DNA from: Bacteroidota bacterium
Lineage (GTDB): Bacteria; Bacteroidota; Ignavibacteria; Kryptoniales; JAKASW01
NCBI GenBank assembly: GCA_023480735.1
Contig: JAMCXB010000011.1
Span: forward strand, 30,169-94,168
DNA: 64,000 nt
Direction of reading: 5' to 3'
The first letter of the stretch is position 1; each line of letters opens with the position of its first letter. Shown one piece after another: positions 26,379 to 44,427 of the stretch. The notes beneath the pieces were generated by a model that made no database searches, was not told the origin of the DNA, and saw only the letters and a program-made list of their open reading frames with translations. The position numbers were made by a program, and so were the translations under genes.

Positions 26379-28069
26379 GTTCCTCCTCCGAACTTCGATT
26401 GCTGGCTTGAGACGCTCTCGTATTCAAACCGTCCGGCGCCGCCCTGGAATTTTTCCGCGAGATCGACGGCACCCTCGAGGGCGTCGCTGCCATCATCGCC
26501 GATGCCGCCAGCACTCAATGATCCGGGGCTCGGCTCAGCCTTGAGTTGACGGATGACGATGTCCTGATCAGGATCATCGGGATCGAACGTAATCAGTCCC
26601 ATTTTAATGTATGGAGCAAGCCGAGCAATACGGGCGTGCTTGTTGCCGACCTGGTTCACCGGCCAGAAAGGAAGCGGCCTGTGATTCTTTGCCATGTAAC
26701 GGAGGTACTCGCGCTTAATGAAATCCTTATAGGAATTGTCGGCGACGCCGAGGGGATTCGATTTGAAACGGCTGACATGATCATAGGAAGTGTCAAGCAT
26801 CCAGTCGACGTCCGACTGCTGGACGTCCGCCTTCAGAAGTGGGATGTGAAGCCTTTTATTCTTGCCGTCATCGATAAGGCCTATTCCGACCGTGATCACA
26901 GCCTTCGCGTCGCCCGGTTCAGTTGAAGACGGATCAACAAAGGAGACTTTTACGTATTTTGACAGGTCGAGATCTCTGAGGCGGTGGTACTTGAACCATT
27001 CGTCTTTGAAGACCTGGTCTTTTCTCGACCGCGGGCGCATCATGCGTTCGGTGTCGAAGGTGTCGGGATCGTCTTTCTGCTCCTGCAGGAGCTCCAGAGT
27101 CGGGAAACGATATTCCCATGCGGACATTAAATTATCCGGAAAGCCATGGTCACGGCAGGCTTTCGCGATTCGTTTGCCCTCACCCAACCCTCTCCTCGAC
27201 GAGTCGAGTCGTCGACCGGAGGGAGAGGGCACGTTTGGTATGAGCGCACGGAAGATAACCTTGTTGAAATGCCCGGTATTCTTGCCGGTCATGAGTTCGT
27301 CTGTGATGGTTCCCTTCATGGTCCAGTTGCAGAGGTATATCGCGGACCATCGTGGGAAGTTGACTGCCTTGAGGTCGTCACCCTTAATAATATCGACGTA
27401 CTTCTGTACCAGCATCGGGCTATCGGGCGCGTTATTGGCGCTGACGTCGTCGAAGATTATATGATCGGGACGATGGCCGGAGTTTTCCTCTCCCGTCAAG
27501 ACCTGGTCGCGACCATAACCTTTGACCTTCCGGCCGGTCTTAGTAATGAAAGCCCCGAACTCCCACTCGACGCTACCCTGCAACTCTCCGAAATCGGAGA
27601 TGAGACGCCGGTTGTTTTCAAACTCAATCTTAAGCGGGACGACTTTGGATTCCGCCTTGTCTTCGGTGCGGGCGACGAACGGGATGAACCAGCGATCCTC
27701 AAAGACGATCTTGTAAATCGGATCAATCTTGCCAAGGAGGGTGCTCTTTGCTGACTCGCGGAAGCCCGCGACGATCGAGAATTTTTTCATGAGGTCGGCG
27801 ATCTCGAAAAGCTCACGATGGAAGGGAGCGAAGCCGGCGTCGATCCAGTCGTACTTGCCGTCGGGGTCCTTCCAGCATGTCCGATATTGTTCTTTGACCG
27901 TGATGTAGTGTGGGAAGTATGTCGCGGCGAAGAAGAACTTATCTACCTTCGCGCGCTTCTTCCGGGCTTCGCGCTTGGCGGTGGAATCGTTGGGAAACGG
28001 AGTCGACTGCTGCTGGATGCGGCTGAGTAGGTCGCCGAACTGGCGATCAAAGTCGCGCTGGGTTAGCAT
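26372..28069 (-). CDS. Terminase large subunit (Mu gp28-like)
   Basis: 565 aa, downstream of the DUF1804 gene and upstream of the portal. It has ATPase-like 'IVAGFRESAKSTL' and nuclease-half features, and it contains in-frame hairpin repeat R1. Confidence 0.75.
   Translation of the reverse strand: MLTQRDFDRQFGDLLSRIQQQSTPFPNDSTAKREARKKRAKVDKFFFAATYFPHYITVKEQYRTCWKDPDGKYDWIDAGFAPFHRELFEIADLMKKFSIVAGFRESAKSTLLGKIDPIYKIVFEDRWFIPFVARTEDKAESKVVPLKIEFENNRRLISDFGELQGSVEWEFGAFITKTGRKVKGYGRDQVLTGEENSGHRPDHIIFDDVSANNAPDSPMLVQKYVDIIKGDDLKAVNFPRWSAIYLCNWTMKGTITDELMTGKNTGHFNKVIFRALIPNVPSPSGRRLDSSRRGLGEGKRIAKACRDHGFPDNLMSAWEYRFPTLELLQEQKDDPDTFDTERMMRPRSRKDQVFKDEWFKYHRLRDLDLSKYVKVSFVDPSSTEPGDAKAVITVGIGLIDDGKNKRLHIPLLKADVQQSDVDWMLDTSYDHVSRFKSNPLGVADNSYKDFIKREYLRYMAKNHRPLPFWPVNQVGNKHARIARLAPYIKMGLITFDPDDPDQDIVIRQLKAEPSPGSLSAGGIGDDGSDALEGAVDLAEKFQGGAGRFEYESVSSQQSKFGGGTW
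27177..27229 (+). repeat. Prophage hairpin repeat R1 (composite, in frame inside TerL)
   Basis: ccctcacccaaccctctcc-tcgacgagtcgagtcgtcgaccgga-gggagaggg. The loop carries a second palindrome (tcgacga/tcgtcga). In TerL it is translated as 'PSPSGRRLDSSRRGLGEG'. Confidence 0.7.
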
Positions 28070-28073
28070 GCGA

Positions 28074-28106
28074 CCCTCACCCTGGCCCTCTCCCTTTGGG
28101 AGAGGG
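28074..28106 (+). repeat. Prophage hairpin repeat R2 (between the terS stop and terL start)
   Basis: ccctcaccctggccctctccc-ttt-gggagaggg. Confidence 0.75.
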
Positions 28107-28128
28107 AACGATTATCATGGCACACGGG

Positions 28129-28599
28129 TCATTTCCTCCTGTACTTTTTGCTCATGAGAGAGCCGAACTCAGATAAGAAGGGTTGGAGACGTTCAAGTTC
28201 TTCATGGTCGCGCTCGGCCATGAACTCAGTGAATTCGGTCATCGCCAGGATGATGTTGCCGTAGTTGTCGATCTCTTTCTGCAGAGACTTCGCAGAGAGG
28301 ATGAGCTGGCGCAGTGCATAGACTTCGGAGGGGTTGATTTTGTTCGTCGTCTGAATCTCCGTGACCATGCTGGCGAGTCGCGATGTTGCAGCCCGGAGCA
28401 TTTGTTTAACTGCGGAGAAGGACGTCGTCAATATCTCCTCGCGCTCCTTATCCCAATCGTTTCCAGCGGCACCGTCTTCGGATTTCCAGCGGCGGACGGT
28501 GGATTCGGGAACGTCGATGAGCTTGGCAATTTCTATGATGTCCTTATTTTCTTCGCAATAGAGGCGCTTGGCGTCGATGCGCTCCAGTTTATGTGCCAT
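28129..28599 (-). CDS. Mu gp27-like protein (DUF1804), putative small terminase subunit
   Basis: The N-terminal HTH-like 'AKRLYCEENKDIIEIAKLIDVPESTVRRWKSEDG...WDKERE' is typical of DUF1804. It lies directly upstream of terL. Confidence 0.6.
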   Translation of the reverse strand: MAHKLERIDAKRLYCEENKDIIEIAKLIDVPESTVRRWKSEDGAAGNDWDKEREEILTTSFSAVKQMLRAATSRLASMVTEIQTTNKINPSEVYALRQLILSAKSLQKEIDNYGNIILAMTEFTEFMAERDHEELERLQPFLSEFGSLMSKKYRRK

Positions 28600-28879
28600 T
28601 TTTCTTCTCCTTTAGGTTGTGCACGACCGAGGATGAATCGGAGACGGGGAGAACCGGGGAATCGGGGACTGGGTTGTCGGTTATATTAAATAATGTGTCG
28701 AGTTGGCAAGCGGATAGGCTGCCGACGGTAACGCCCCAGTAGAATTTACATCCGTCATAGTTGATCTCTATGTGCATTCGCTGTTTTTGCTGTGCCACTT
28801 TATCGAGGACTTCTTTCAGTGACGCTAGATGGTTCATTTGATTCTCCAGCATGTGACGACGAAGCCGGTGACGCGACAT
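28589..28879 (-). CDS. Hypothetical early/middle protein
   Basis: The ORF is on the operon strand. Its C-terminal part is encoded by G-rich block C ('DNPVPDSPVLPVSDSS'). Confidence 0.3.
   Translation of the reverse strand: MSRHRLRRHMLENQMNHLASLKEVLDKVAQQKQRMHIEINYDGCKFYWGVTVGSLSACQLDTLFNITDNPVPDSPVLPVSDSSSVVHNLKEKKNGT
28639..28673 (+). repeat. G-rich repeat block C (canonical G-quadruplex motif; 15-mer GAGACGGGGAGAACC)
   Basis: cggagacGGGGagaaccGGGGaatcGGGGactGGG has four G-runs with loops of 6, 4 and 3 nt. Confidence 0.55.
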
Positions 28880-29253
28880 TGGCGTTTGCCTGCGGCGGTG
28901 ATTCTACCGAGTTCACGGAGTCTCATGTTTCTGGCTGAGACGACATTCACCGGCAGCCCCGTTGCTTTCTCGATCTCCTTGTTAGTCGCGTTGCCATTAA
29001 GCTTGATGCATTCGTAGACTTTTTCCATCTGGGTATTAGCAATCCATGGGTCAAGATCGATAATTGTCTTTGCCAGGTTGCGGGTGTCGGTCGCGACCGG
29101 GATCGATTTCGGCATCGTCTCGGTGCCGATCGGCGCCGGGGATGCAGCTGCTCTCTGATCAAAAAGTGGCAGATCAACTCCGACGCCCTTTTCCTGGATG
29201 CGGGCGAAACGGGCAGCGTTGCGACGCCAGGCTGCGGAGTCGTGATGCTTCAT
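28834..29253 (-). CDS. Winged-helix DNA-binding-like protein
   Basis: From the ATG at 29253: 'MKHHDSAAWRRNAARF...ECIKLNGNATNKEIEKATGLPVNVVSARNMRLRELGRI', which is wHTH-like. The longer ORF from 29442 only reads through repeat R3. Confidence 0.4.
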   Translation of the reverse strand: MKHHDSAAWRRNAARFARIQEKGVGVDLPLFDQRAAASPAPIGTETMPKSIPVATDTRNLAKTIIDLDPWIANTQMEKVYECIKLNGNATNKEIEKATGLPVNVVSARNMRLRELGRITAAGKRQCRVTGFVVTCWRIK

Positions 29254-29255
29254 CG

Positions 29256-29288
29256 CCCTCACCCTTGCCCTCTCCCAGACGGAGAGGG
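29256..29288 (+). repeat. Prophage hairpin repeat R3
   Basis: ccctcacccttgccctctccc-agac-ggagaggg. It supplies the C-terminal '...PSPSGRGQG*' of ORF 29259-29498. Confidence 0.75.
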
Positions 29289-29498
29289 AATGCACTCCCC
29301 CGGCTTGAGTATTTCGCGTATCTTCTCGGCGGCGCGTTTCATCCAGTCCGGAGCATGGTCCATGCAGTAGTAGTCGTTCGCCGGGATAGGAGTGCGGACG
29401 TACGCAATGCCCTTGTCGATGACGCTGCCGCAGACCAGGCAAGTAGGTCGGAAGTACGTGATCGCGGAGATGTCGAACTCGAACGGGATGCCGATCAT
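29259..29498 (-). CDS. Hypothetical small protein (Cys-containing)
   Basis: 79-aa ORF on the operon strand with 'CLVCGSVID...YYCMDH'. Its tail is encoded by R3. Confidence 0.3.
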   Translation of the reverse strand: MIGIPFEFDISAITYFRPTCLVCGSVIDKGIAYVRTPIPANDYYCMDHAPDWMKRAAEKIREILKPGECIPSPSGRGQG

Positions 29499-30130
29499 GA
29501 CCTCACCCCTTTGTCGACCTCACCCTGACCCTCTCCTTGAGAAGGAGAGGGGTTATATAAAGAGGCGTCCGCGTCTGGGCATGCGAGTCGTGCTGTCGCG
29601 CCTTCGTCAGGGGGCTGTTGGGAAGGAGGACGCGGATCGCCTCTGGAACTCATGAATGTCTTGTAAAGCTCATGGATGTTAGGCGCGCCGCCGACGACCT
29701 TGTCTGTGCCGGACGGAGAAATCCAGCCGTGGACGCTCTGGCACTTCAGGTAGGTTATGAAGAGCGCGGCCTCCTGTTTATCCGTAAATGCCTTCTGGTC
29801 GCCCAGCTCCGCTGACGGATTGGAGGTCGCTTTCCGGACGTTAGCAACGTGGGTCTTCTTCTCCTCGGCAATTTTCTCAATCACGACGAGGAACCACCTT
29901 AGTGCCTTCTTCCCGCCACTTGTCGCCCATTTCCAGAGGATCCGTTCCACGTCGGTTGCGAGCAGCCTTTGGCTCTCGACCATCTTCGCTACTTCGTTCA
30001 GTGCCTGCTCCTCGACATAATTGATGCCCATGCCGGTGATCCACGTCGCATGCTGGCGAAGAGTGCCCTCCCGGCCGGCAACCTTGAGGACGAGTCTGTC
30101 GAGTGCTGCGAGTGGGGCAGATGGAGTCAT
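29495..30130 (-). CDS. Hypothetical early protein
   Basis: The ATG at 30130 (MTPSAPLAALDRL...) lies just downstream of repeat R5. The longer ORF to 30220 only reads through R5. Confidence 0.35.
   Translation of the reverse strand: MTPSAPLAALDRLVLKVAGREGTLRQHATWITGMGINYVEEQALNEVAKMVESQRLLATDVERILWKWATSGGKKALRWFLVVIEKIAEEKKTHVANVRKATSNPSAELGDQKAFTDKQEAALFITYLKCQSVHGWISPSGTDKVVGGAPNIHELYKTFMSSRGDPRPPSQQPPDEGATARLACPDADASLYNPSPSQGEGQGEVDKGVRS
29501..29552 (+). repeat. Prophage hairpin repeat R4 (double head)
   Basis: cctcacccctttgtcgacctcaccctgaccctctcc-ttgagaa-ggagagggg. It encodes '...PSPSQGEGQGEVDKG...' at the end of ORF 29495-30130. Confidence 0.75.
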
Positions 30131-30134
30131 AACG

Positions 30135-30185
30135 CCCTCACTCTGACTCTCTCCTCTACGAGGCCGTAGGCCCAGGGGGAGAGAG
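30135..30185 (+). repeat. Prophage hairpin repeat R5 (composite loop)
   Basis: ccctcactctgactctctcc-tctacgaggccgtaggccca-ggggagagag. The loop carries a small extra hairpin (ctacg/cgtag). Confidence 0.65.
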
Positions 30186-30200
30186 AAATAAAAGGAGTGG

Positions 30201-30395
30201 TCATTTGTCGAGCACCTCAATGGTTATTTTCACAGGGCGGGAATCAAGATCCGTTTTATGGCGGGTTATCGATAATGTCGGACGCAGCAGGTTAATGTTA
30301 TCGTAAGCAGGGACCTTCTTGAAGCGGAACACCTCAGATGACTTAACGCCCGGCGGGACGAATGCACGGATGATCTTTTTGTCAGTCCTAATCAT
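30201..30395 (-). CDS. Hypothetical small protein
   Basis: 64-aa ORF, tightly packed after gam on the operon strand. Confidence 0.3.
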   Translation of the reverse strand: MIRTDKKIIRAFVPPGVKSSEVFRFKKVPAYDNINLLRPTLSITRHKTDLDSRPVKITIEVLDK

Positions 30396-30909
30396 TCTGG
30401 ATGGTCTCCCAGTTTGGCTCGATGAAGAAGGTCTCGGCTTGGTCGATCTTAAGTCCGATCGATGCGAGGTTCTCGTCAGTCAACTCTTTCGCTGTGTAGT
30501 CGGCGAGGACTAGTTCTTTATCGATTTCCTCTTTTTGCCGGACGTACCTGCCCTTAAAAATTCGCTTAATCAGTTCCAGGGTAGTATTAATGTTATATTT
30601 CCGATTAAGCTGAGAAACTTTCGGCGGGTTTGTGCGAAAGCCAACCTCACCGTGGACGAAACTTCTTGTGCGGACTTTATCGAAGTCCGGTTTATGCACG
30701 AGACAATACTGCTCGATCTCCTTTTCAATCAACTCGGACTGACTGCAGGCATCCGCGGTTTTGTCGTTAAAGTCGGCGCGAATAGACTGGATGAGTTTAT
30801 TCATGTCCGCTTCGGCTTTTGCAATAAACACTTTGTGGCGTCCGAGCTCGAGCAACTGAGAATCGAGATCGTCGTAGTTGAAGACGTGTTTGGCTGTCAA
30901 TCTTGTCAT
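30388..30909 (-). CDS. gam: Host-nuclease inhibitor Gam (Mu Gam family)
   Basis: 173 aa. 'LGRHKVFIAKAEADMNKLIQSIRADF...EIEQYCLVHKPDF...RSFVHGEVGFRTNPPKV' matches the Mu Gam architecture. Confidence 0.7.
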   Translation of the reverse strand: MTRLTAKHVFNYDDLDSQLLELGRHKVFIAKAEADMNKLIQSIRADFNDKTADACSQSELIEKEIEQYCLVHKPDFDKVRTRSFVHGEVGFRTNPPKVSQLNRKYNINTTLELIKRIFKGRYVRQKEEIDKELVLADYTAKELTDENLASIGLKIDQAETFFIEPNWETIQND

Positions 30910-30910
30910 G

Positions 30911-31144
30911 TTACCTGTCCCTTAGATTTATGATTTGCGTTATATGCTCCACGTTCTCGATCGAGATCGAGATGCGGAGGTTAAAGATTTCGGCGCAGTT
31001 GCTACAGATGCCGGTGCCCTCACCCCGTCCCTCTCCGAAAGGGAGAGGGTGATACACGACGATCCAGTGGCACGCCTCACCCTTATCGCTGATGCAGGCA
31101 TCGTAATCGGTGCAGCCACAATAGAGGCATTTGGTGTCGTTCAT
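30911..31144 (-). CDS. Small Cys-rich (zinc-binding-like) phage protein interrupted in frame by repeat R6
   Basis: 'CLYCGCTDYDAC...GEACHW[IVVYHPLPFGEGRGEGTG]ICSNC'. The bracketed part is encoded by R6. Confidence 0.45.
   Translation of the reverse strand: MNDTKCLYCGCTDYDACISDKGEACHWIVVYHPLPFGEGRGEGTGICSNCAEIFNLRISISIENVEHITQIINLRDR
31017..31049 (+). repeat. Prophage hairpin repeat R6 (in frame inside the Cys-rich ORF)
   Basis: ccctcaccccgtccctctcc-gaaa-gggagaggg. Confidence 0.75.
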
Positions 31145-31392
31145 AGCTTCACGCCCTCACCTAAATCCTCTCCCAAGGGGGAGAGGACATGATGGAGAGG
31201 GGACGCGTGGAAGATGGTTCCGTCCAAGTGGAAATGGTCCGCGAATTCGAGGATGATCTCTATGGCGCGCTCCAGGTCAACCGCGACGGTCACACCTCCG
31301 GATTTCACGCGCATAAACTTACCCTCCGGGATCAGCTCGAGCTGAGCCGGGCAATTATTGCTGTCACACGCGCACTTGATTACCCTATCCAT
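31141..31392 (-). CDS. Hypothetical small protein
   Basis: 83-aa ORF on the operon strand. Its tail '...SPLGEDLGEGVKL*' is encoded by R7. Confidence 0.3.
   Translation of the reverse strand: MDRVIKCACDSNNCPAQLELIPEGKFMRVKSGGVTVAVDLERAIEIILEFADHFHLDGTIFHASPLHHVLSPLGEDLGEGVKL
31154..31203 (+). repeat. Prophage hairpin repeat R7 (long subfamily, shared with R15)
   Basis: ccctcacctaaatcctctccc-aag-ggggagagg-acatgatggagagggga. It is nearly identical in layout to 44376-44427. Confidence 0.75.
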
Positions 31393-31687
31393 GACGGAGC
31401 CTCCTTCCAGCTAGAATGCCAGCGGCGGTCCCGAGGAGGATAGCGGTAGAGATGAGTACGGGTATAATGTGCCGGACTTTCGGAGTTACGAATCCACGCA
31501 TCGCCTGGATGAGCTCGGCGCGGTAATCACCACGCGCCCAGACCTCGGCATCATGGCACTCCCGACAGAGCCAACTCGACCAGGCGCTAGACTTGGTGAG
31601 TCGGTGACGGCAACCAACGCAGATCGTGTCGGGATCAGAGAGAGCGTTAAAGATTGTCATTGTAGTATCCCCTGCATAAGGCACCAT
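31385..31687 (-). CDS. Hypothetical zinc-ribbon-like protein with a C-terminal TM segment
   Basis: It has 'CVGCRH...CRECH' and 'IIPVLISTAILLGTAAGILA'. The likely start is the internal MTIFNAL (31660). Confidence 0.3.
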   Translation of the reverse strand: MVPYAGDTTMTIFNALSDPDTICVGCRHRLTKSSAWSSWLCRECHDAEVWARGDYRAELIQAMRGFVTPKVRHIIPVLISTAILLGTAAGILAGRRLRHG

Positions 31688-31750
31688 ATCCCCACGGCAA
31701 GGAGGACGGAGGAGGCGAATAAGAACAAAACGGTGTCGACGTCGGGATAA

Positions 31751-32272
31751 TTACGCTGTGGCATATTCCGGCTCCGATCTGGTGCGTACCATGACCTCCG
31801 AAAGGCGATCGTGGTTCTGGTTTTCCTCGTAGACGACAAGGTCGTCGGACGTTTCGGCAGTCTTACTCCAATCGAAGCGCGAGAGCCAATCGACGAAATC
31901 CGAAGTGTGATGTGGAAGAAGTCGCTTACATCCTTCGATGAGTCGCAACTTGCCTGCGGGCGTAAGTGATCTTGTGAAGCCGTTGTCCTCGTATTTGAGT
32001 TCAAATAAGAGCGAGGCGAGGCGCGAAATCTTGTCGGGTTGGTTCGGATAAAGATCGTCGGCAAGATTCAAGGCGCGAAGTTCAGTCTGCTGGTTGACCG
32101 CGAGCTGCCGCCATCGGTTGACGGAATCGTGTTGGACCCGGAACTTTGATTCGAGGTCGCGATAGAAATATTCGGCGACTTCGGCGTCGTAGTCCTTGCC
32201 GGCGCGGAGCATTCCGACGATGACAATACCGATGACCATACCGACGGTCAACGCGACAATTACTGTGAGCAT
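31751..32272 (-). CDS. Membrane-anchored hypothetical protein
   Basis: The ATG at 32272 follows GGAGG, and the N-terminus is a TM segment (MLTVIVALTVGMVIGIVIVGML). The longer ORF to 32458 overlaps the GemA-like gene. Confidence 0.4.
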   Translation of the reverse strand: MLTVIVALTVGMVIGIVIVGMLRAGKDYDAEVAEYFYRDLESKFRVQHDSVNRWRQLAVNQQTELRALNLADDLYPNQPDKISRLASLLFELKYEDNGFTRSLTPAGKLRLIEGCKRLLPHHTSDFVDWLSRFDWSKTAETSDDLVVYEENQNHDRLSEVMVRTRSEPEYATA

Positions 32273-32273
32273 T

Positions 32274-38008: not shown

Positions 38009-38070
38009 TTTCCTTTTGTTATCCTGACGTAACAAAACTAATAAAATCTTCTGTGTGTGTCAAGGGAAAA
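38009..38070. promoter_or_regulatory. Divergent early control region with a palindromic operator candidate
   Basis: 62-bp AT-rich spacer between the divergent HTH genes. It holds the inverted repeat TTGTTA-N8-TAACAA at 38016-38035. Confidence 0.35.
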
Positions 38071-38832: not shown

Positions 38833-38836
38833 ACCA

Positions 38837-39034: not shown

Positions 39035-39035
39035 G

Positions 39036-39518
39036 ATGGACAATCGATTTCCACCATTGTTCGACACGAGCAGGTTCCGAACCGACGTAAAAGGCAAAAG
39101 ACCAGTCTCGAAGGCCTTGATCGCTGCCGTTATCGTGGCTTTGGCGTGCTTTATATACGTAGTTAACGGGCTGATCTCTAACGGGACGCTAAACTGGTAC
39201 GTGAACGATAGGGCATCACTGAACTCCGGAGGCGGCGCAGTAAGGGAAGGCGACATGGTGACGATAAGCGTGCCCAGCCAGAAATTTACGTTTATGGCAA
39301 CGACACTGGATAAAGAGGAAGAGCTTGTCGGACACATTGTGGCCAAAGAAGCAACCGAGGTAACGGGGATGATTTTGAGGGGCGACGCTTTTACTGTCCC
39401 GAGCGGGACAGCCGCGAGGGTGTTGGAGCAGAGAGGCGACTACTACCATGTGGAGATCGTCGGCGGCGACCAGGGTGGCATGGATGGGTATATACCGAAG
39501 GGATTCGTAAAGAAGTAA
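39036..39518 (+). CDS. Membrane-anchored protein with an SH3b-like C-terminal domain
   Basis: The ATG at 39036 follows GGGAGG. It has the TM segment 'ALIAAVIVALACFIYVV' and the SH3-like C-terminus 'RGDYYHVEIVGGDQGGMDGYIPKGFV'. Confidence 0.4.
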   Translation: MDNRFPPLFDTSRFRTDVKGKRPVSKALIAAVIVALACFIYVVNGLISNGTLNWYVNDRASLNSGGGAVREGDMVTISVPSQKFTFMATTLDKEEELVGHIVAKEATEVTGMILRGDAFTVPSGTAARVLEQRGDYYHVEIVGGDQGGMDGYIPKGFVKK

Positions 39519-39546
39519 GAAATCAGGAGGCTGAGGTGAAATAGTC

Positions 39547-39627
39547 ATGGTTTCTGCTCTCGTAAGCGGAGCGCTATCTGGCTGCGCTGGAACCCTCGTC
39601 TTTGAGGATTCCGGCGGAATTTATTAA
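39547..39627 (+). CDS. 26-codon lipoprotein-like mini-ORF
   Basis: MVSALVSGALSGCAGTLVFEDSGGIY has a lipobox-like 'LSGC'. AGGAGG and GAGGTG lie upstream. It is below the ORF-track cutoff. Confidence 0.2.
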   Translation: MVSALVSGALSGCAGTLVFEDSGGIY

Positions 39628-39645
39628 TTAAATAGTATTTTTTTC

Positions 39646-39674
39646 TTGACATTTAATTTTCTTTTCCTTATGTT
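39646..39674 (+). promoter_or_regulatory. Candidate promoter of the rightward (lysis/head/tail) operon
   Basis: TTGACA (39646-39651), 17 nt, then TATGTT (39669-39674). The TATGTTTT stretch also resembles the Bacteroidota-type TAnnTTTG -7 element. Confidence 0.4.
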
Positions 39675-39860
39675 TTCACGTCTACGACTCGGACGAGTCG
39701 CAGACTCGTTGAGACAAGTTTGATATGTAGCCGCGAAGCCCTGGAGGATTAGCGGAAGATCGGTTAGCGATTTAAGGAGCGCCGACACTTTGGTTCGTGA
39801 GTAGATTCCCGATAAGATCGGGAACGACAAACTCACAACCATGGTGTCGGCGCTTTTTTA
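39675..39860 (+). ncRNA. Structured ~185-nt leader / short transcript ending at an intrinsic terminator
   Basis: There is no credible ORF. It contains the hairpin CGACTCG-ga-CGAGTCG (39685-39700) and a long nested hairpin at 39778-39854. Confidence 0.35.
39778..39860 (+). terminator. Intrinsic terminator: long nested hairpin followed by a T tract
   Basis: Outer stem AGCGCCGACAC/GTGTCGGCGCT, middle stem TCGTGAGT/ACTCACA, inner stem TTCCCGAT-aag-ATCGGGAA, then TTTTTT at 39854-39859. It ends 28 nt before the endolysin start. Confidence 0.55.
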
Positions 39861-39887
39861 TTTATTAATGTCAGGAACGAACTAGGT

Positions 39888-40595
39888 ATGCAAAGCGATC
39901 AGACATATCCCCGCTGGAACAACTGGCTCTTCTGGGCCTGCGTGCTCATTGCCGCCGGATTCTCATTTGTAATCGGGCTAAGTGAAGGATATGACAGCGC
40001 AAAACGCTTGGAGCCGAACGCATTTGCCGACAGGCAGAGCAGGACAGAGAAAGTTCTCGACGACATTATAGCTTCGTGGATCCCCGGCCGGGTGGTCAGC
40101 AATGAGGCCGGGGTGACAGCCGAGCCATTCACCACCCGGTTCGGATTCTTCCCGGACACCGTGGTACACCTCGCCATCATGGTACAGGATTCGTTCAGAG
40201 TTCCGGCACCGGTGACGCTTGCTCAGTGGGCATTGGAGTCGGGTTTTGGCAAAAACAGTTTAGGTGATCATAACTACTTCGGACACACATTTGCGGCCGT
40301 GAAAGAGTTCATGGCGCATCCGGCGTATGTAGTGGCGTACGACCGGAGACGCGGGGACAATGGGACTTGGAGAAGAGTCGCAGTGAGATTTGCGAAGTAT
40401 CGATCTATCGAAGAATGTTTCGTGGTACACGGCGAATACTTGTCCTCGTCGGTCTACTATCGCAAAGCGCGAACGGCAAAGAGCATAGGGCAATATGTCA
40501 GGAAGTTATCGAAGTATTACGCGGAGGATCCCGGATATGCCGTGAAACTCATGGCGATTATCGAGCGGTACAATCTTGAGGAGAAATGTAAATGA
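39888..40595 (+). CDS. Endolysin: N-acetylglucosaminidase (mannosyl-glycoprotein endo-beta-N-acetylglucosaminidase family) with an N-terminal signal-anchor
   Basis: It has the TM segment 'WLFWACVLIAAGFSFVIGL' and 'LAQWALESGFGKNSLGDHNYFGHTF', which is typical of the glucosaminidase domain. Confidence 0.7.
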   Translation: MQSDQTYPRWNNWLFWACVLIAAGFSFVIGLSEGYDSAKRLEPNAFADRQSRTEKVLDDIIASWIPGRVVSNEAGVTAEPFTTRFGFFPDTVVHLAIMVQDSFRVPAPVTLAQWALESGFGKNSLGDHNYFGHTFAAVKEFMAHPAYVVAYDRRRGDNGTWRRVAVRFAKYRSIEECFVVHGEYLSSSVYYRKARTAKSIGQYVRKLSKYYAEDPGYAVKLMAIIERYNLEEKCK

Positions 40596-40861
40596 GTGTG
40601 GATCAGCGCACGATCAATTTAGGGCGGAAGGTTGAGTTAGAGGATAGAATTAAAGCCCTCTCACTTCGGATTCATTCAGAAGTGCAAACATTGAAAGATC
40701 TCTTCGAGCCGCGCACAATGGACTTGTCATACATCAAGGACGTCGACCCGGACCGCGTGAGGGTTTATTCGGTTGACATTGCGAAAAACGTGAAGAAGTA
40801 CAAACTACTCCTCGAGGAAATAAAGGCGCTGAAACGCGAGCTAGGAATAGAGGAGGAATAA
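40592..40861 (+). CDS. Hypothetical coiled-coil protein in the lysis cassette
   Basis: 89-aa ORF that overlaps the endolysin stop. Confidence 0.3.
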   Translation: MSVDQRTINLGRKVELEDRIKALSLRIHSEVQTLKDLFEPRTMDLSYIKDVDPDRVRVYSVDIAKNVKKYKLLLEEIKALKRELGIEEE

Positions 40862-40862
40862 G

Positions 40863-41123
40863 GTGTCGGTCAAGGGTTATGTCGTTACGAATGCGAGTTT
40901 AGTTGCTGCGATATTCGCGACGTCCTTGGACCCGCAGCTCAAGGCGCTGGCGTTTGCGGTGATTGCGGTTGTTTCGCTCATCGCAAACCTGTTATGGATC
41001 GGCGAAAAATTCAGAGAAGCAATAATCAGGAGATTGATGCGTGACGTGGAGGACGAGATTATTAGACTCGATTATCTGAGACATCCGACTGCGAAGGTTG
41101 ATGTGCCCAAGGATAAGAAGTGA
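40863..41123 (+). CDS. Holin-like two-TM small membrane protein
   Basis: 86 aa with two hydrophobic segments ('ASLVAAIFATSL', 'ALAFAVIAVVSLIANLLWI') and a charged C-terminus, next to the endolysin. Confidence 0.35.
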   Translation: MSVKGYVVTNASLVAAIFATSLDPQLKALAFAVIAVVSLIANLLWIGEKFREAIIRRLMRDVEDEIIRLDYLRHPTAKVDVPKDKK

Positions 41124-41202
41124 ATTATTCTAACCCCATAACGAAGTGGCTCCGGCGTGGTACGATGGCTAGCGAACTCCGTACCACGCCGTCCCGAGTA
41201 AT

Positions 41203-41242
41203 CCCTCACCTGAATCCTCTCCCCGATAGAATTGGGGCGAGG
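41203..41242 (+). repeat. Prophage hairpin repeat R11 (intergenic, upstream of gpI)
   Basis: ccctcacctgaatcctctcccc-gatagaatt-ggggcgagg (one stem mismatch). Confidence 0.65.
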
Positions 41243-41253
41243 CCACGAAAGAG

Positions 41254-42711
41254 TTGCGGAGGTTTGTAGTGGCTTTGAAAGTAAATCAAAAGGCGGTCGA
41301 ACATCTGAGATCTCTGGTCAGCCAGGGAAAAGTCGATCGGAATTCTAACTGGAGTTTTTCAGCCGAGGATGGCAATGCCCTCCTTGGCGCGGCCGGCAGC
41401 GACTGGTCAAACTATTCCCAAAATCACTTAGCGGTAGATACCAGTGCTGCCGAGAATACTAAGGCGCGTTTCCATTATCCGGCGGGCAAGGACGGAAAGG
41501 TCTATCGTAGCGGAGTTATCGCGGCGAAGCAGAGAGCGGCGGCGCAGGGCGAGAAAGATATAGAGAACGCCGCGGACGATCTACTGCAGTTGATAGATCG
41601 CAAAGCGCAGAGCGCAAAGGGTGAAGTGAAAGCGAAGAGAGTGGTCTTCTGCCAGGTAGATTTAGGAGTAATAGCGGGAGACGAATTGCCGACCCGGATT
41701 AACCTCCTTCCGCTCGGCGAATGGAAGGGTTACCCTTCGGTTGATCAGAGTGGTAAACCCGTACTACTTTCTTTCAAAGTCACCCCGGATCGCGTAAAGC
41801 AAGCCATCGCTTACCTAAAGAGACTCAGGTCACGAAATTCAAACCTCGATCTCGTGATCGACAATGACCACTTAACTCACGCGGACACCTATGCGCCTGC
41901 CTTCGGTTGGATCAAAGATCTAATTGACGCGGGCGAGAAAGGACTGGACGCGGTGGTCGAGTGGACGGCGCTGGGTGCGGAAGCGTTGAAGAATAAACTC
42001 TACAGGTATATCTCGCCCGTGCTGGCGTTCGACCTGCCGGACAGCGCGACGGGAGAGATAATTCCCTTTGCCGTGACCGATGCGGGACTGACTAATCAAC
42101 CGTTTATAGAGTCTTTGCCTGCGGTAATGGCAAAGAAGATAATTGAAACAACAAACAACGCCCCGATGGGGCAAGGAGAAATCAAGATGGACAAAATCTT
42201 AGCACTGCTTCAGACGTGGCTTAAGCTCCCCGATGCGGCGACGCCGGACGAGGTGGCTACCGGTCTCGAGGCAAAACTAAAAGAAGAGAACGCCGAACCA
42301 GACGAGGTGCAGGCAAAGAAATTGCTTACCGTTATCGGCTTTGATGAGGGCACTACCGTTGAACAGGCCAAGGCCACCGTCATCATGGCAAAGCAGCACC
42401 AGAGCCAAACATTGAACGTCGCCCAGGAGCTGGCCGCGATGAAGGCCGCACAGCTCGAGCGGGACGTCAATGAATTAGTTGACGGTGCGATCCGCGAGGG
42501 GAAGGTGTTCCCTGTGAACCGCGAAGACTTCGTGGTGATGGCGAAAAAAGACTTCGCGGGGATCAAGACGTTCCTGTCCAAGGCGCCCGTCGTAGGTCCA
42601 TTGAATCCGATGCCGGCCGGCCGGGAGAGCGGCGGAGTAAAGGCTCCGAGCGACACCGACAAGGAGGTCGCGGCGGCGCTCGGCATAGATGCGGCGAAGA
42701 TGGTGGAATAA
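41254..42711 (+). CDS. Mu gpI-like head protease / scaffold protein
   Basis: 'INLLPLGEWKGYP', 'DLVIDNDHLTHADTYAPAFGWIKDL' and 'YISPVLAF' fit the Mu-like prophage I protein family. The Ala/Glu-rich C-terminal half is scaffold-like. Confidence 0.7.
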   Translation: MRRFVVALKVNQKAVEHLRSLVSQGKVDRNSNWSFSAEDGNALLGAAGSDWSNYSQNHLAVDTSAAENTKARFHYPAGKDGKVYRSGVIAAKQRAAAQGEKDIENAADDLLQLIDRKAQSAKGEVKAKRVVFCQVDLGVIAGDELPTRINLLPLGEWKGYPSVDQSGKPVLLSFKVTPDRVKQAIAYLKRLRSRNSNLDLVIDNDHLTHADTYAPAFGWIKDLIDAGEKGLDAVVEWTALGAEALKNKLYRYISPVLAFDLPDSATGEIIPFAVTDAGLTNQPFIESLPAVMAKKIIETTNNAPMGQGEIKMDKILALLQTWLKLPDAATPDEVATGLEAKLKEENAEPDEVQAKKLLTVIGFDEGTTVEQAKATVIMAKQHQSQTLNVAQELAAMKAAQLERDVNELVDGAIREGKVFPVNREDFVVMAKKDFAGIKTFLSKAPVVGPLNPMPAGRESGGVKAPSDTDKEVAAALGIDAAKMVE

Positions 42712-42712
42712 A

Positions 42713-42744
42713 CTCACCTGAATCCTCTCCTCGAAGAGGAGAGG
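42713..42744 (+). repeat. Prophage hairpin repeat R12 (starts 2 nt after the gpI stop)
   Basis: ctcacctgaatcctctcctc-gaa-gaggagagg. Confidence 0.75.
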
Positions 42745-42791
42745 CCACGTAGAGATGAGATGTTTGGAATATTAAAAGGAGGATGAAGTAA

Positions 42792-43208
42792 ATGGCAGCA
42801 GCAACACAAGGACGCGACACGACAGCCCGAAACCTATTCGGTCTCTTGCCGATGGCCGTCGCGGCGGCGAAACACATTTTTGCAGGCACACAAGTCGTAA
42901 AGAACGCGGCCGGATATGCAGAGCCGGCAACTACAGCGCTGGCTAAGGTCGCGCTCGGACGCGCGAAGCATGAGGTTGATAACACGCTCGGCGCAGACGG
43001 CGACCTGTCGATCACCGTGGAAGAAGGCGAGTTCAAGTTTGACAATTCCGCGGCGGCCGACGCGATCACGATTGCCGACATCGGCAGCCCCTGCTACGCG
43101 GTTGACGACCAGACCGTCGCAAAAACCGACGGCGTAGGTACGCGCTCGAAAGCGGGAATCGTGACCGGCGTCGATAGCGACGGCGTCTGGGTGAAGATGG
43201 GTCTCTAA
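42792..43208 (+). CDS. Putative head decoration / DUF2190-like protein
   Basis: 138 aa, located between the protease-scaffold and major capsid genes. 'IFAGTQVVKNAAGYAEPA' and 'KAGIVTGVDSDGVWVKMG' fit the beta-rich DUF2190 pattern. Confidence 0.3.
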   Translation: MAAATQGRDTTARNLFGLLPMAVAAAKHIFAGTQVVKNAAGYAEPATTALAKVALGRAKHEVDNTLGADGDLSITVEEGEFKFDNSAAADAITIADIGSPCYAVDDQTVAKTDGVGTRSKAGIVTGVDSDGVWVKMGL

Positions 43209-43212
43209 CATT

Positions 43213-43246
43213 CCCTCACCCCGATCCTCTCCCTTAAGGGAGAGGG
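43213..43246 (+). repeat. Prophage hairpin repeat R13 (4 nt after the stop of 42792-43208)
   Basis: ccctcaccccgatcctctccc-ttaa-gggagaggg. Confidence 0.75.
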
Positions 43247-43278
43247 AGTGTGGCGGAGGAACTATTCAACTTTAAAAA

Positions 43279-44289
43279 GTGAGGATGAAAGTGATTAAGA
43301 AAAGCTTAAAAGTAGTTATCGGGCTGGCGCTACTCGTCGGCACGATAGCGATTGTTAATTCGTGGACTGCCGCCTCTGGTATCAGTATGGCGCTGTTGAT
43401 CGGGCCGTCGACATCCGACTCGCTCTATCGCGGGTTCAAGGTAATTTTTAATGATGCGTTCAATAAAGCGCAGCCGAGTTATAATCGGATTGCGATGACG
43501 ATCCCGTCGAACACTAAGCAGGAAACCTATGCGTGGCTCGGCGCATTTCCGCGAATGAAAGAATGGATCGGGCCACGGAACGTCAAGAACTTAGCCGCGT
43601 CCGATTGGACAATTAAGAACAAGAAGTTCGAGGTCACGATCGAGATACCATCCGAGGACATCGAAGACGACACCTATAACCTGTTCAACCCCATGATCGG
43701 CGGAATGGGTATGAGTGCCAGGATGCATCCGGATGAGCTTGTGTTCTCGCTGCTCAATGCCGGCTTTACGCAGAAATGCTACGACGGCAAGAATTTCTTC
43801 GATACCACTCACGCGTTCGGCTCGAACAAGAGCACAAAAATATTAAACGCGACCTACTACGGGGCGGCACTTGCAGCGATTGGGCGCATTAAAGATTCGA
43901 CAGGCAATCCACTTTTTAACGGATCCGAAAAGCTTACACTCGTGACCGGGCCTGAACTGGAAGAAACCGCAAAGCAAATGTTGAATGCCGACTTTATTTC
44001 CGTTGGCGGCGGGTCGACGCAGAATAACGTCTGGAAGGGCACCGCGGATTACCTGAAGAGTCCGCAGGTCACCAGCCCGACAGCGTGGTTCATTATCGTG
44101 GACTTTATGGGATTGCGTCCGCTGATCTTTCAAGAACGGAAGGCACCGAGATTTATTACGAAGAATAACCCGCAGGATTCCGACTACGTATTTATGAACG
44201 ATAAATACGTTTACGGCGTAGATTCGCGGGACAACGCCGGCTACGGGCTGCCGCAATTGGCCTACGGTTCCGACGGAACGGTGGCGTGA
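43279..44289 (+). CDS. Major capsid protein (Mu gpT family)
   Basis: 'ETYAWLGAFPRMKEWIGPRNVKNLAASDWTIKNKKFEVTIEIPSEDIEDDTYNLF' matches the Mu-like gpT signature. The start is uncertain (43279, 43285 or 43387). Confidence 0.8.
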   Translation: MRMKVIKKSLKVVIGLALLVGTIAIVNSWTAASGISMALLIGPSTSDSLYRGFKVIFNDAFNKAQPSYNRIAMTIPSNTKQETYAWLGAFPRMKEWIGPRNVKNLAASDWTIKNKKFEVTIEIPSEDIEDDTYNLFNPMIGGMGMSARMHPDELVFSLLNAGFTQKCYDGKNFFDTTHAFGSNKSTKILNATYYGAALAAIGRIKDSTGNPLFNGSEKLTLVTGPELEETAKQMLNADFISVGGGSTQNNVWKGTADYLKSPQVTSPTAWFIIVDFMGLRPLIFQERKAPRFITKNNPQDSDYVFMNDKYVYGVDSRDNAGYGLPQLAYGSDGTVA

Positions 44290-44295
44290 TTAACT

Positions 44296-44326
44296 CGCAC
44301 TTAGTCCCTCTCCTTTTAGGGAGGGC
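44296..44326 (+). repeat. Prophage hairpin repeat R14 (degenerate, after the capsid stop)
   Basis: cgcacttagtccctctcc-tttta-gggaggg. Confidence 0.5.
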
Positions 44327-44352
44327 GAATTTGTTCTACCTGACAGCGGCGA

Positions 44353-44427
44353 CCTCAGCCCTGACCCCTCTTCAACCTCACCTAAATCCTCTCCTAAGCG
44401 GAGAGGACATGATGGCGGGAGAGGGGA
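44353..44427 (+). repeat. Prophage hairpin repeat R15 (extra partial head plus the long subfamily copy)
   Basis: cctcagccctgacccctcttcaa + cctcacctaaatcctctcc-taagc-ggagagg-acatgatggcgggagagggga. Confidence 0.7.

Follow-up and report, generated by a model that had tools for sequence, protein, structure and literature searches.

What are the short, uniformly oriented hairpin repeats that crowd part of a Mu-like prophage, do they belong to a described element, and how did all of them come to face the same way? The window that raises these questions, i.e., the whole stretch of DNA analyzed here, is 64 kb long.

A co-oriented repeat family in a Mu-like prophage

The repeats, 33-60 bp in length, share the design CCCTCACC(C/T)-N3-5-CCTCTCC-loop-GGAGAGG: each copy is a GC-rich hairpin (7-9 bp) accompanied by a head, i.e., a third block in which the sequence of one arm recurs. 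The family comprises 14 clear copies plus a degenerate one, all within 27177-44438. The exact hairpin CCTCTCC-N3-12-GGAGAGG was detected 10 times in the window, always on the plus strand, and in none of 100 shuffles; the exact head, CCCTCACC, was detected nine times against 1.6 expected, again only on the plus strand. A looser scan (no more than one mismatch per block, both strands, whole 64 kb) identified the 14 clear copies (27177, 28074, 29256, 29501, 30135, 31017, 31154, 32315, 34486, 35832, 41203, 42713, 43213, and 44353) and no credible further copy anywhere else. Five other scan matches (4755, 27583, 28604, 33518, and 60914) have no head and were rejected. An earlier note on this DNA had described a family of about 15 copies; the pattern counts against shuffles and the recovery of its listed positions show that the family is real.

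The repeats lie in a prophage with genes for MuA, MuB, Gam, TerL, Mu portal, Mu F, gpI, and gpT:

21230..57985, no strand assigned: Mu-like prophage, boundaries approximate (Pfam and PHROG matches)
21.4-38.0 kb, minus strand: left arm with MuA, MuB, Gam, TerS-like, TerL, portal, and Mu F
26372..28069, minus strand: terminase large subunit (TerL; PHROG 38), containing copy 1
34835..36727, minus strand: MuA-type transposase (Pfam Mu-transpos_C, PHROG 310), containing copy 10
38.05-57.9 kb, plus strand: right arm with lysis, gpI, gpT, and tail genes

Genes of the host, a relative of Candidatus Kryptoniota, stand on either side (a phosphoesterase at 20717 and TetR at 57983), and GACGAATTA-type repeats near 21.28-21.34 kb have an inverted match at 57972-57981, at the prophage ends. 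Related prophages likewise end directly past Mu F. As the earlier note had proposed, the family is confined to the prophage within the window: no copies occur in the ~27 kb of flanking host DNA, nor in the remaining ~19 kb of the ~36.6-kb prophage. In the occupied region the density is ~0.9 copies per kb (15 in 17.3 kb), and under uniform placement the probability of such clustering is (17.3/36.6)^15, i.e., ~1e-5.

All 15 copies have the C-rich head 5' on the plus strand (two-sided binomial p ~6e-5). The genes switch strand at ~38.04 kb, and the orientation of the repeats continues unchanged across the divergent operons, which bears out the earlier view that it tracks the DNA strand and not transcription. 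Two viral contigs show the same co-orientation, with either polarity relative to genes: the G-version is in sense for nine of 10 copies in one (L184), and the C-version is in sense for all eight copies in the other (L167). In E. coli K-12, the G-version is on the leading strand in 13 cases and on the lagging strand in 10 (our count from Holder Table 1; PMC4666352), and thus there is no support there for replication-directed polarity.

The BoxC/PIT/TMECO family and its association with DUF559

The earlier note could assign the repeat to no described element. This changes when the minus strand is read: the copies then run CCCTCTCC(C)-loop-(G)GGAGAGGG-N3-5-GGGTGAGGG and, judged by sequence, are solo members of the BoxC/PIT/TMECO family. 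BoxC and PIT elements were reportedly also treated by Bachellier et al. and by Hoyne et al. in 2000. The family motif, CCCTCNCCC-N3-6-GGGNGAGGG-N3-GGGNGAGGG, occurs across many phyla without known function or mobility (Holder 2015, PMC4666352; Kaplan 2016, PMC5100583); it has been named both the BoxC/PIT/TMECO intrastrand-triplex motif (PMC4666352) and HPGQ, a G-quadruplex-hairpin motif (PMC5100583). Two of our 15 copies match the Holder TMECO pattern exactly and two more match it with one mismatch; the rest are variants with a 7-bp stem. A scan with the exact pattern detected at least 120 loci in bacterial genomes and at least 120 in viral contigs, across many phyla. Among the matches listed, the same head-linker-arm strings are common to many phyla, and the T-type string CCTCACCTAAATCCTCTCC is found in a Mucilaginibacter genome. 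The individual copies are as follows:

27177..27230, plus strand: copy 1, with a nested palindrome in its loop; read in frame as VPSPSGRRLDSSRRGLGEG within TerL; ssDNA fold -16.5 kcal/mol, z -3.3
28074..28106, plus strand: copy 2, a canonical G4 motif that fits the strict TMECO pattern; in minus-strand reading, the hairpin, GGGTGAGGG, and TCGC precede the ATG of TerL
29256..29288, plus strand: copy 3, its head 2 nt upstream of the ATG at 29253; contains the end of the upstream ORF 29498-29259
29501..29551, plus strand: copy 4, with two heads; codes for the C-terminal tail (...PSPSQGEGQGEVDKGVRS, missing from the L243 ortholog) of ORF 30130-29495; ORF 29498 begins at GGGGTGAGG-TC-ATG
30135..30186, plus strand: copy 5, with compensatory variant arms TCTCTCC/GGAGAGA and a nested palindrome in its loop; head 4 nt upstream of the ATG at 30130
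31017..31049, plus strand: copy 6, one mismatch to the TMECO pattern; in frame in the small Cys-rich ORF 31144-30911 as HPLPFGEGRGEG
31154..31201, plus strand: copy 7, with a T-type linker (TAAAT) and an extra G-rich tail; its extended hairpin takes in the head (RNA fold -30.4 kcal/mol, z -3.2)
32315..32347, plus strand: copy 8, CCCCTCC-N5-CCTCCCC-loop-GGGGAGG, with compensatory arm changes; codes for the C-terminal tail of ORF 32819-32274; variant also in relatives L243 (8512) and L245 (4363)
34486..34522, plus strand: copy 9, a strict TMECO match within the 3' end of ORF 34830-34450, upstream of MuB (start 34418)
35832..35874, plus strand: copy 10, double-headed; read in frame as MPSSPLEGEGRGEVGEG within the MuA transposase
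41203..41243, plus strand: copy 11, with a T-type linker (TGAAT), a longer loop, and one arm mismatch; intergenic, upstream of gpI
42713..42744, plus strand: copy 12, T-type; head begins 2 nt past the gpI stop codon
43213..43246, plus strand: copy 13, upstream of gpT; head begins 4 nt past the stop of a 138-aa virion protein and pairs with downstream GGAGG (RNA fold -32 kcal/mol, z -3.2)
44296..44325, plus strand: copy 14, degenerate (CCCTCTCC-TTTTA-GGGAGGG, eroded head), directly past the gpT stop; recognized by direct reading, as pattern scans did not find it
44353..44438, plus strand: copy 15, a compound palindrome of three C-rich heads and matching G-rich blocks; outer stem includes GGAGG upstream of the gene starting at 44446 (RNA fold -57.1 kcal/mol, z -5.6)

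The T-type subfamily is positionally clustered (three of four copies at 41-44 kb). Direct reading of the sequence agreed with the earlier note on the duplicated heads (29501, 35832, and 44353), on the nested palindromes (27177 and 30135), and on a common tail, ACATGATGG..GAGAGGGGA, at 31154 and 44376.

The family is also found next to a small nuclease-like gene, DUF559. In 80 metagenomic loci selected by the DUF559 protein alone, 55 have a BoxC hairpin no more than 300 nt from the gene, and the density of BoxC is 2.98 per kb near the gene vs 0.13 per kb farther off (23-fold). The layout of these loci is ordered (hairpin-Ghead, gene, Chead-hairpin), and in many of them the G-head stands 3-8 nt before the start codon. 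BoxC copies also lie at and downstream of the 3' end of E. coli ycjD, a DUF559 gene. The adjacency suggests that DUF559 may be the mobilizer of BoxC. The 64-kb window has no DUF559 gene, and a search of 50,697 records of cultured phage genomes yielded one. The earlier note had pointed to RAYT or IS200/IS605 transposases; the copies are without the GTAG head of REPs, and none of the window ORFs scanned codes for such an enzyme. With no mobilizing enzyme encoded in the window, one would have to act in trans.

Expansion, in-frame copies, and probable use at gene junctions

The repeats have expanded relative to kin. In the closest relative, L243 (72-80% amino acid identity), the syntenic region from MuA to portal has two copies vs ~10 here; L245, a relative likewise at ~80% identity, has two copies, and L327-L329 (58% identity) have none. 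Among 19 other Mu-like loci (260 kb), such hairpins were detected in one contig only. L243 and L245, which are independent and come from other samples, share the same variants with the same polarity relative to TerL; thus, the copies move along with the phage lineage. These comparisons showed no transposition event, target-site duplication, or nucleotide-level empty site, the relatives being too diverged at 72-80% amino acid identity.

Several copies are in-frame insertions within genes, including TerL and MuA, where they are translated as PSP...GEG.GEG peptides. Copy 1 adds 12 aa to TerL (96 homologs found) compared with all 14 aligned homologs, and copy 10, in a variable loop of MuA, adds 9 aa vs L243 and 15 aa vs L327. 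In both proteins, 21-27 nt of a variable loop were replaced by the element, and neither is a clean insertion. In at least five small early ORFs, the element supplies the C-terminal tail in place of that of the ortholog. Some repeat copies sit in essential genes.

Other copies lie at gene junctions. In the minus-strand operon, the ATGs at 28069, 29253, 29498, 30130, and 31144 are preceded by GGGTGAGGG at a distance of 2-5 nt (9 nt at 31154), and for some copies the G-rich head probably serves as the Shine-Dalgarno sequence. In L243, GGTGAGG is found at the TerL start with the hairpin absent. Across the family, a start codon with an ORF follows the head in 16% of BoxC copies vs 21% of random positions in genomes, and in 13% vs 18% in viral contigs; since such start codons are no commoner than at random, the Shine-Dalgarno role would be local and not a family property. 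In the plus-strand operon, hairpins stand directly past stop codons. The copy at 41203 is not one of these: it lies 80 nt past the stop of gene 40863-41123. The copies have no T-run and thus are not intrinsic terminators.

Origin of the repeats and comparison with known systems

The junction copies could be regulatory RNA modules selected by the phage, which would protect or process polycistronic mRNA and set translation of the next gene: a hairpin with a Shine-Dalgarno head in the early operon and a stop-proximal hairpin with an anti-Shine-Dalgarno-like C-rich head in the late one, spread by recombination and kept by selection. On the one hand, most copies lie exactly at junctions, with the G-head 2-5 nt (9 at 31154) before starts or the C-head 2-4 nt past stop codons. 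The predicted hairpins are stable, the C-heads of 43213 and 44353 are paired, in the outer stems, with GGAGG lying downstream (-32 and -57 kcal/mol), the stems of 30135 and 32315 are preserved by compensatory changes in the arms, and DUF559 genes are bracketed in the same geometry. On the other hand, there is no junction that the copies in TerL, MuA, and the small ORF at 31017 could regulate, and polarity relative to transcription is opposite in the two operons, so a single RNA mechanism cannot cover both. The same operons run with zero to two copies in close relatives, and PIT elements showed no promoter or terminator activity in E. coli (PMC4666352). We regard this explanation as rather unlikely.

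That the repeats form functional DNA structures (a purine-motif triplex, a G-quadruplex, or a cruciform) or bind proteins in Mu-type replication, transposition, genome condensation, or packaging, a role that would need one polarity and a central position, appears improbable to us. The uniform DNA polarity, the cluster in the central 17 kb of the prophage, and ssDNA hairpins predicted for both strands would fit it, as would the triplex and G4-or-hairpin structures that members of the family adopt in vitro (PMC4666352, PMC5100583). However, only three of the 15 copies have four GGG runs, only four fit the 9-nt triplex blocks, and the T-type has GG runs only; thus, the feature conserved here is not the potential to form G4 or triplex. 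Moreover, the spacing is irregular (57 nt to 5.3 kb), the copies are missing from relatives whose genomes have the same plan, and no triplex was seen in E. coli by in vivo DMS footprinting (PMC4666352). That BoxC-type motifs are chromosomal repeats in many phyla would suit a generic host repeat, present in both orientations across the chromosome, from which the resident prophage passively acquired copies. This we consider very improbable: 15 copies in 17 kb of prophage stand against none in ~27 kb of flanking host DNA, and L243 and L245, from other samples, share variants and polarity relative to TerL. The density is also telling: taking the genome of Enterobacter asburiae as an estimated ~4.8 Mb, the ~0.9 copies per kb found here amount to ~30 times the density of that genome. 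With 143 copies, it is the richest reported (PMC4666352).

The explanation that we favor, at somewhat better than even confidence, is that these 15 BoxC/PIT/TMECO solos are a selfish, non-autonomous palindromic element that entered the phage lineage and multiplied there recently. We infer that the element is mobile and that its insertion is strand-asymmetric. New copies would be inserted with a polarity fixed to the DNA strand and not to transcription, which would call for a step that tells apart the two strands of the whole 36-kb genome; candidates are one-way replication (by the host fork, or Mu-type from one end) and single-stranded intermediates. The genome has hardly any spacer DNA, and copies would survive at permissive sites only, i.e., gene junctions, small ORFs at their 3' ends, and those surface loops of TerL and MuA that are variable; some junction copies would later have been put to use as Shine-Dalgarno heads in the minus-strand operon. 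The best candidate for an enzyme acting in trans would be the DUF559 nuclease (Vsr-like, PD-(D/E)XK).

Dense, asymmetric, co-oriented short repeats are also known from other phage genomes, for example the stoperators of cluster A mycobacteriophages, which are phage-specific repressor-binding sites oriented with transcription and are not hairpins; the repeats here, in contrast, belong to a bacteria-wide family and keep their DNA polarity across divergent operons. The earlier comparison with REP and Rickettsia palindromic elements is apt, given the copies in frame in TerL and MuA. Rickettsia palindromic elements likewise lie in frame in coding genes, even essential ones, adding a loop peptide, but they are 100-150 bp long, restricted to Rickettsia, and unrelated in sequence, whereas our 33-60-bp copies belong to a family of many phyla. 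REP/BIME/REPIN elements are also short palindromes with an asymmetric 5' tag, occurring as solos and inverted doublets, with a small gene bracketed by its own repeat (DUF559 for BoxC), and ssDNA-based, strand-polar insertion of their kind would explain the uniform orientation. However, our copies carry no GTAG or CGTC tag, no Y1 transposase was found among the scanned window ORFs, and the gene bracketed by BoxC has a PD-(D/E)XK (Vsr-like) fold, whereas RAYT (IS200/IS605-like Y1) is HUH. REPs are rarely inside ORFs, where several of our copies lie.

With BoxC/PIT/TMECO the repeats share the three-block design, the sequence (CCCTCNCCC, loop, GGGNGAGGG, N3, GGGNGAGGG), and a multi-copy state with copy number varying between close relatives. 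They differ in being carried by a phage: Holder et al. had described no link between the family and phages, plasmids, or transposons (PMC4666352). Their host belongs to the FCB group and not to the Proteobacteria. Many of the copies are 7-bp-stem variants without GGG runs, unlike those described; all are solo and co-oriented, whereas E. coli BoxC is found 13 times on the plus and 10 times on the minus strand with five inverted doublets; and several lie within ORFs, whereas E. coli BoxC is "always intergenic". What is new here is the density, the uniform orientation, the in-frame copies (in TerL, MuA, and the 3' ends of small early ORFs), and the recent expansion.

The prophage and its hairpin repeats

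The part of the window from ~21.3 to 57.9 kb is a Mu-like prophage; neither its ends nor a target duplication could be placed to the base, and these boundaries are approximate.

Features of the prophage (window coordinates)
34835-36727, minus strand, left arm: MuA transposase
33471-34418, minus strand, left arm: MuB
30388-30909, minus strand, left arm: Gam
28129-28599, minus strand, left arm: DUF1804/TerS-like protein
26372-28069, minus strand, left arm: TerL
22419-23870, minus strand, left arm: Mu-type portal
21466-22092, minus strand, left arm: Mu F
from 38.05 kb, plus strand, right arm: lysis genes, gpI protease/scaffold, gpT major head protein, tail genes

This plan is unusual for a Mu-like phage: the TerS-like, TerL, portal, and Mu F genes (21466-28069, minus strand) stand at the far end of the leftward MuA/MuB operon, and the rightward arm holds the protease, capsid, and tail genes. 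The relatives have the same genome plan, common to L243 (the closest relative) and to L327 and L328 (58%-identity relatives), and in them, too, Mu F is followed closely by the end of the phage. Between TerL and portal (25494-26378, minus strand) lies a gene for a PAPS-reductase-like protein (PHROG 424), and the tail region (46685-48124, plus strand) encodes a 479-aa protein with an FGE-sulfatase-like domain. Megablast found no match to the phage region among 50,697 phage records and none to the host flank among E. coli genomes. The host flanks encode sugar-metabolism enzymes, T9SS-sorted proteins, and MFS transporters, and no transposase, RAYT, or DUF559 gene was found in them. The host belongs near Candidatus Kryptoniota, within the FCB group, judging from a flank protein that has 87% identity to one of Candidatus Kryptobacter.

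Because MAFFT misaligned the variable loops, the repeats were counted with fuzzy patterns on both strands, with no more than one mismatch in each block and with pairing of the arms as a further check. This census recovered every one of the 15 copies (named here by start position) in the earlier note and nothing credible elsewhere in the window. Direct reading of the sequence bore out the doubled heads described at 29501, 35832, and 44353, and the nested palindromes in the loops of 27177 and 30135 and the common tail ACATGATGG..GAGAGGGGA at 31154 and 44376 were likewise as reported. For the exact hairpin CCTCTCC-N3-12-GGAGAGG the window gives 10 matches and 100 shuffles give none, and the exact head CCCTCACC, the C-rich block 5' of the hairpin, occurs nine times against 1.6 expected; all these matches are on the plus strand within 27.1-44.5 kb. 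The copies are 33-60 bp long and all solo, with no inverted doublets. All 15 lie within 17.3 kb of the ~36.6-kb prophage (p ~1e-5 under uniform placement) and point the same way (two-sided p ~6e-5) across two divergent operons; their orientation thus follows the DNA strand and not transcription, as the earlier note had held. Compensatory arm variants are present in 30135 and 32315, and the subtypes cluster, three of the four T-type copies being at 41-44 kb. A CRISPR array was rejected, since genes lie among the copies and their spacing is irregular (57 nt to 5.3 kb).

Other hairpins and assembly breaks were seen in the same region. An unrelated GC-rich hairpin, GGCGTGGTACG...CGTACCACGCC, lies upstream of copy 41203 (window 41147-41196). 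Another, GGGGCGCGGTGCCCGCGCCC, unrelated to the BoxC copy beside it, is conserved upstream of TerL in L243, L244, and L245 and is absent from the window; the GC-rich hairpins adjoining BoxC copies are at 9330-9352 in L243 and 2530-2552 in L245. In the short-read assembly of SRR10244963, from the same sample, contigs break within or beside the repeat-rich region: Logan contigs L002 and L001 end at window 34775 and ~22370, and one contig starts ~250 nt from the copy at 34486-34522. Such repeats may fragment short-read assemblies of these phages.

The earlier note could not assign the repeats to a described element; we are highly confident that they belong to one, the BoxC/PIT/TMECO family. The motif 5'-CCCTCNCCC N3-6 GGGNGAGGG N3 GGGNGAGGG-3' was named TMECO, with BoxC and PIT element as earlier names (Holder et al. 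2015, PMC4666352), and the same sequences have been described as a G-quadruplex-hairpin switch (Kaplan et al. 2016, PMC5100583). The minus-strand reading of the window copies is CCCTCTCC(C)-loop-(G)GGAGAGGG-N3-5-GGGTGAGGG. With one mismatch allowed, four copies match the family pattern (28074 and 34490 exactly, 31017 and 43213 with one mismatch), and the remaining 11 have the same three blocks as shorter-stem variants, with 7-8 nt cores or 3-5 nt linkers. The predicted folds and compensatory variants agree with the BoxC architecture, in which the C-rich arm complements the first G-rich arm and the third block repeats the G-rich arm. A scan of one genome per species with the exact pattern found at least 120 loci of nearly identical sequence, with Proteobacteria, Planctomycetota, Chloroflexota, Cyanobacteria, Bacteroidota, Verrucomicrobiota, Acidobacteriota, and other phyla among the matches listed, and at least 120 loci in IMG/VR viral contigs match as well. 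Variants of the window copies recur in this cross-phylum set, and the T-type variant CCTCACCT-NAAT-CCTCTCC is found in other phyla too.

Rfam covariance models placed no family on any copy. The only Rfam match in 21-60 kb is to RT-14 RNA in the tail-gene region (48478-48613, plus strand); at 33 bits against a gathering score of 48 (E 0.62) it is below threshold and probably due to chance. Intrinsic terminators were rejected, as no T-run follows the hairpins on either strand. For the family, an intrastrand purine-motif triplex or a G4-hairpin switch has been described in vitro. The canonical 4xGGG motif is kept by only three window copies; what is conserved in this phage, judging from the sequences, is the hairpin with its head, and G4 or triplex potential is unlikely to be the conserved feature.

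Gene junctions, coding insertions, and relatives

In mRNA of the minus-strand operon, the order hairpin, N3-5, GGGTGAGGG, N2-5, ATG is found at TerL (28069) and at the genes starting at 29253, 29498, and 30130; at the gene at 31144 the head-to-ATG spacing is 9 nt. The G-rich head is placed as a putative Shine-Dalgarno sequence, an arrangement seen only in the window phage, in some other phages, and around DUF559 genes; as a general property of the BoxC family this role was tested and rejected. At the TerL start, L243 has GGTGAGG before the ATG without a hairpin, whereas L245 (another close relative) and the window have hairpin and head. One reading is that the head was there first, as a Shine-Dalgarno sequence; the other is that a hairpin once present has since been lost. 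Within the plus-strand operon, gpI and a 138-aa virion protein have the C-rich head beginning 2-4 nt beyond their stop codons, the degenerate copy at 44296 lies within a few nucleotides of the gpT stop, and the next gene's own GGAGG follows 30-50 nt further on.

RNA and ssDNA folding, proposed in the earlier note, predicted stable hairpins. For the compound copy at 44353-44438 the predicted fold has -57 kcal/mol (z -5.6), and its outer stem includes the GGAGG of the next gene. The nested palindrome at 44345-44450 consists of three C-rich blocks, a hairpin, and three G-rich blocks. Since the GGAGG buried in this modeled fold precedes the Mu gp36-like gene starting at 44446, the palindrome may act as a translational switch.

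Some copies are translated. In TerL, VPSPSGRRLDSSRRGLGEG stands where 14 of 14 aligned homologs have ~8 variable residues (net +12 aa), and in MuA, MPSSPLEGEGRGEVGEG lies in a variable loop (+9 aa versus L243, +15 aa versus L327). The small ORF 31144-30911 contains the element-encoded HPLPFGEGRGEG, and five further small ORFs (34830-34450, 32819-32274, 31392-31141, 30130-29495, and 29498-29259) have element-encoded C-terminal tails that differ from the tails of the L243 orthologs, where an ortholog exists.

Comparison with relatives points to recent expansion. L243 (72-80% amino acid identity) has two copies in the 15 kb from MuA to portal, against ~10 in the window, and L245 has two, one of which occupies the junction upstream of TerL as in the window; the copies of both relatives also have the window's polarity relative to TerL. 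No copies were found in the 58%-identity relatives L327-L329, and in 260 kb from 19 other Mu-like loci such hairpins occurred in only one contig, so BoxC as a general feature of Mu-like phages was rejected. Among the cultured phages checked, DUF559 or BoxC was almost never carried.

Polarity was compared among viral contigs with at least three solo copies, several of which are uniform or nearly so. In L184 (IMGVR_UViG_3300008255_004712), 9 of 10 copies, swarming in 11 kb, have the G-version on the coding strand; in L167 (IMGVR_UViG_3300001580_000140), all eight, within 4 kb, have the C-version there; and in L204 and L208 all three copies of each contig are co-oriented. L167 is not Mu-like and has an apparent HK97-type portal (judged by eye from a clustered ORF). 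Repeat polarity relative to genes is thus opposite in L184 and L167, where some copies seem to be within long ORFs. All these contigs and the window fit a rule relative to the DNA strand, and no single rule relative to transcription accounts for them. In E. coli K-12, 13 TMECO are on the leading and 10 on the lagging strand, with no replichore bias (our count from Table 1 of PMC4666352), a count that speaks against a simple model of replication direction, at any rate where old chromosomal copies are concerned.

Association with DUF559 genes

ORFs of at least 100 aa were clustered from 240 motif-bearing genome and viral loci, among the matches listed. ABC ATPases, the largest family, were dismissed as a family-size effect. 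The only small family common to genome and viral loci among these 240 was DUF559 (PF04480, E 1e-32 to 1e-38), which has a Vsr-like PD-(D/E)XK fold and a single solved relative, 3HRL. In every case (loci L017, L054, L176, L196, and L197) BoxC copies immediately flank the gene. As an independent test, 80 metagenome loci were selected by a DUF559 peptide pattern alone: in 55 of them a BoxC-type hairpin lies no more than 300 nt from the gene, and BoxC density is 2.98 per kb near DUF559 versus 0.13 per kb further out (23-fold). The copies are also ordered. Upstream of the gene, hairpin-then-G-head predominates by 36 to 12, and downstream, C-head-then-hairpin prevails by 40 to 11; the arrangement found most often is [hairpin-Ghead] DUF559 [Chead-hairpin]. 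In many cases only 3-8 nt separate the G-head from the start codon that follows it, and the reading frame frequently extends into the C-head. In E. coli K-12, four of five inverted doublets have their heads facing as in the DUF559 layout, with only 16-27 nt between them; they look like a gene-less version of it.

E. coli K-12 itself has a DUF559 gene, ycjD (examined in NC_000913.3, 1349800-1352800), whose 3' end contains a degenerate hairpin and is partially duplicated, with TMECO #9 following ~170 nt downstream. At the fabI-ycjD-sapF locus, K-12 synteny breaks ~40 nt from TMECO #9, downstream of ycjD, in ~38% of 5,426 complete E. coli genomes, consistent with Holder et al. (PMC4666352), who described TM loci as unstable. 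No published link of DUF559 or ycjD with these repeats was found in the literature searched, and no DUF559 gene was found in the window. Judging from this association, BoxC copies may be the ends of a DUF559 element or its targets, with DUF559 as a candidate mobilizer.

Origin of the repeats and comparison with known elements

On balance, we lean slightly toward a chain of events read from sequence comparison, in which solo BoxC-family elements would have entered the window phage lineage and multiplied there. Insertion would be polar relative to the DNA strand, only insertions at permissive sites would survive, some heads would be co-opted as Shine-Dalgarno sequences, and the mobilizing enzyme would act in trans. 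That the repeats are instead RNA modules selected by the phage seems rather unlikely, given the copies inside ORFs, the opposite polarity relative to transcription in the two operons, and the relatives without the copies. Sites of DNA structure or protein binding for replication or packaging would be an improbable explanation, as G4 and triplex potential is lost in most copies. A passive host REP is very improbable: the host flanks in the window are empty of copies, and the copies travel with the phage lineage.

A broader possibility, which we put forward only tentatively, is that BoxC/TMECO are the ends or homing target of a widespread selfish element whose sole gene encodes the Vsr-like nuclease DUF559. 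On this view a complete unit would read hairpin-Ghead, DUF559, Chead-hairpin, the E. coli doublets would be a gene-less, MITE-like form, and the solos single ends. If so, the co-oriented swarms in the prophage and viral contigs would show solo-end polarity set by DNA strand asymmetry, and phages would be both victims and vehicles of cross-phylum spread. BoxC/PIT/TMECO are among the most conserved short bacterial repeats and have been without a known function, origin, or mobilizing enzyme for 30 years. In this prophage the family acts like an active invader, recently expanded compared with its kin, strictly polar on the DNA, and tolerated in terminase and transposase. The strong, ordered association with DUF559, including ycjD of E. 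coli K-12, opens the question to ordinary laboratory-strain experiments. For phage biology, this is a case of a host-type repeat that has remodeled protein ends, gene junctions, and putative Shine-Dalgarno sequences of a tightly packed genome.

REP/REPIN elements have a GT(A/G)G or CGTC tag 5' of the palindrome, whereas the window copies have CCCTCACC(C/T), and the cognate RAYT (a Y1 HUH transposase) flanked by repeats was not found among the window ORFs scanned. The DUF559-BoxC association resembles the RAYT-REPIN relationship, although the enzyme fold differs. In-frame insertion into ORFs is common to Rickettsia palindromic elements and the window copies; the former, however, are 100-150 bp consensus families (RPE-1 to -8) of Rickettsia, whereas the latter are short, of BoxC sequence, and in a Kryptoniota-related host. 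E. coli TMECO were reported to be always intergenic, strand-unbiased (13+/10-), often in inverted doublets, and without function, with no link to phages, plasmids, transposons, transposases, or integrases; K-12 carries 23 in its 4.6 Mb, and the highest number given for any genome is 143 (PMC4666352). What is described here is new behavior of a known family, absent from the literature searched: the repeats are carried by a phage, densely packed and co-oriented, are in part coding, and have expanded recently in a host of the FCB group. Copies are translated inside ORFs in the window and always intergenic in E. coli K-12, intergenic position being a described property and not part of the sequence definition; all 15 are on one strand with no doublets here, against no strand bias and frequent inverted doublets there; and 15 copies stand in 17.3 kb, as against the 23 of the whole K-12 genome.
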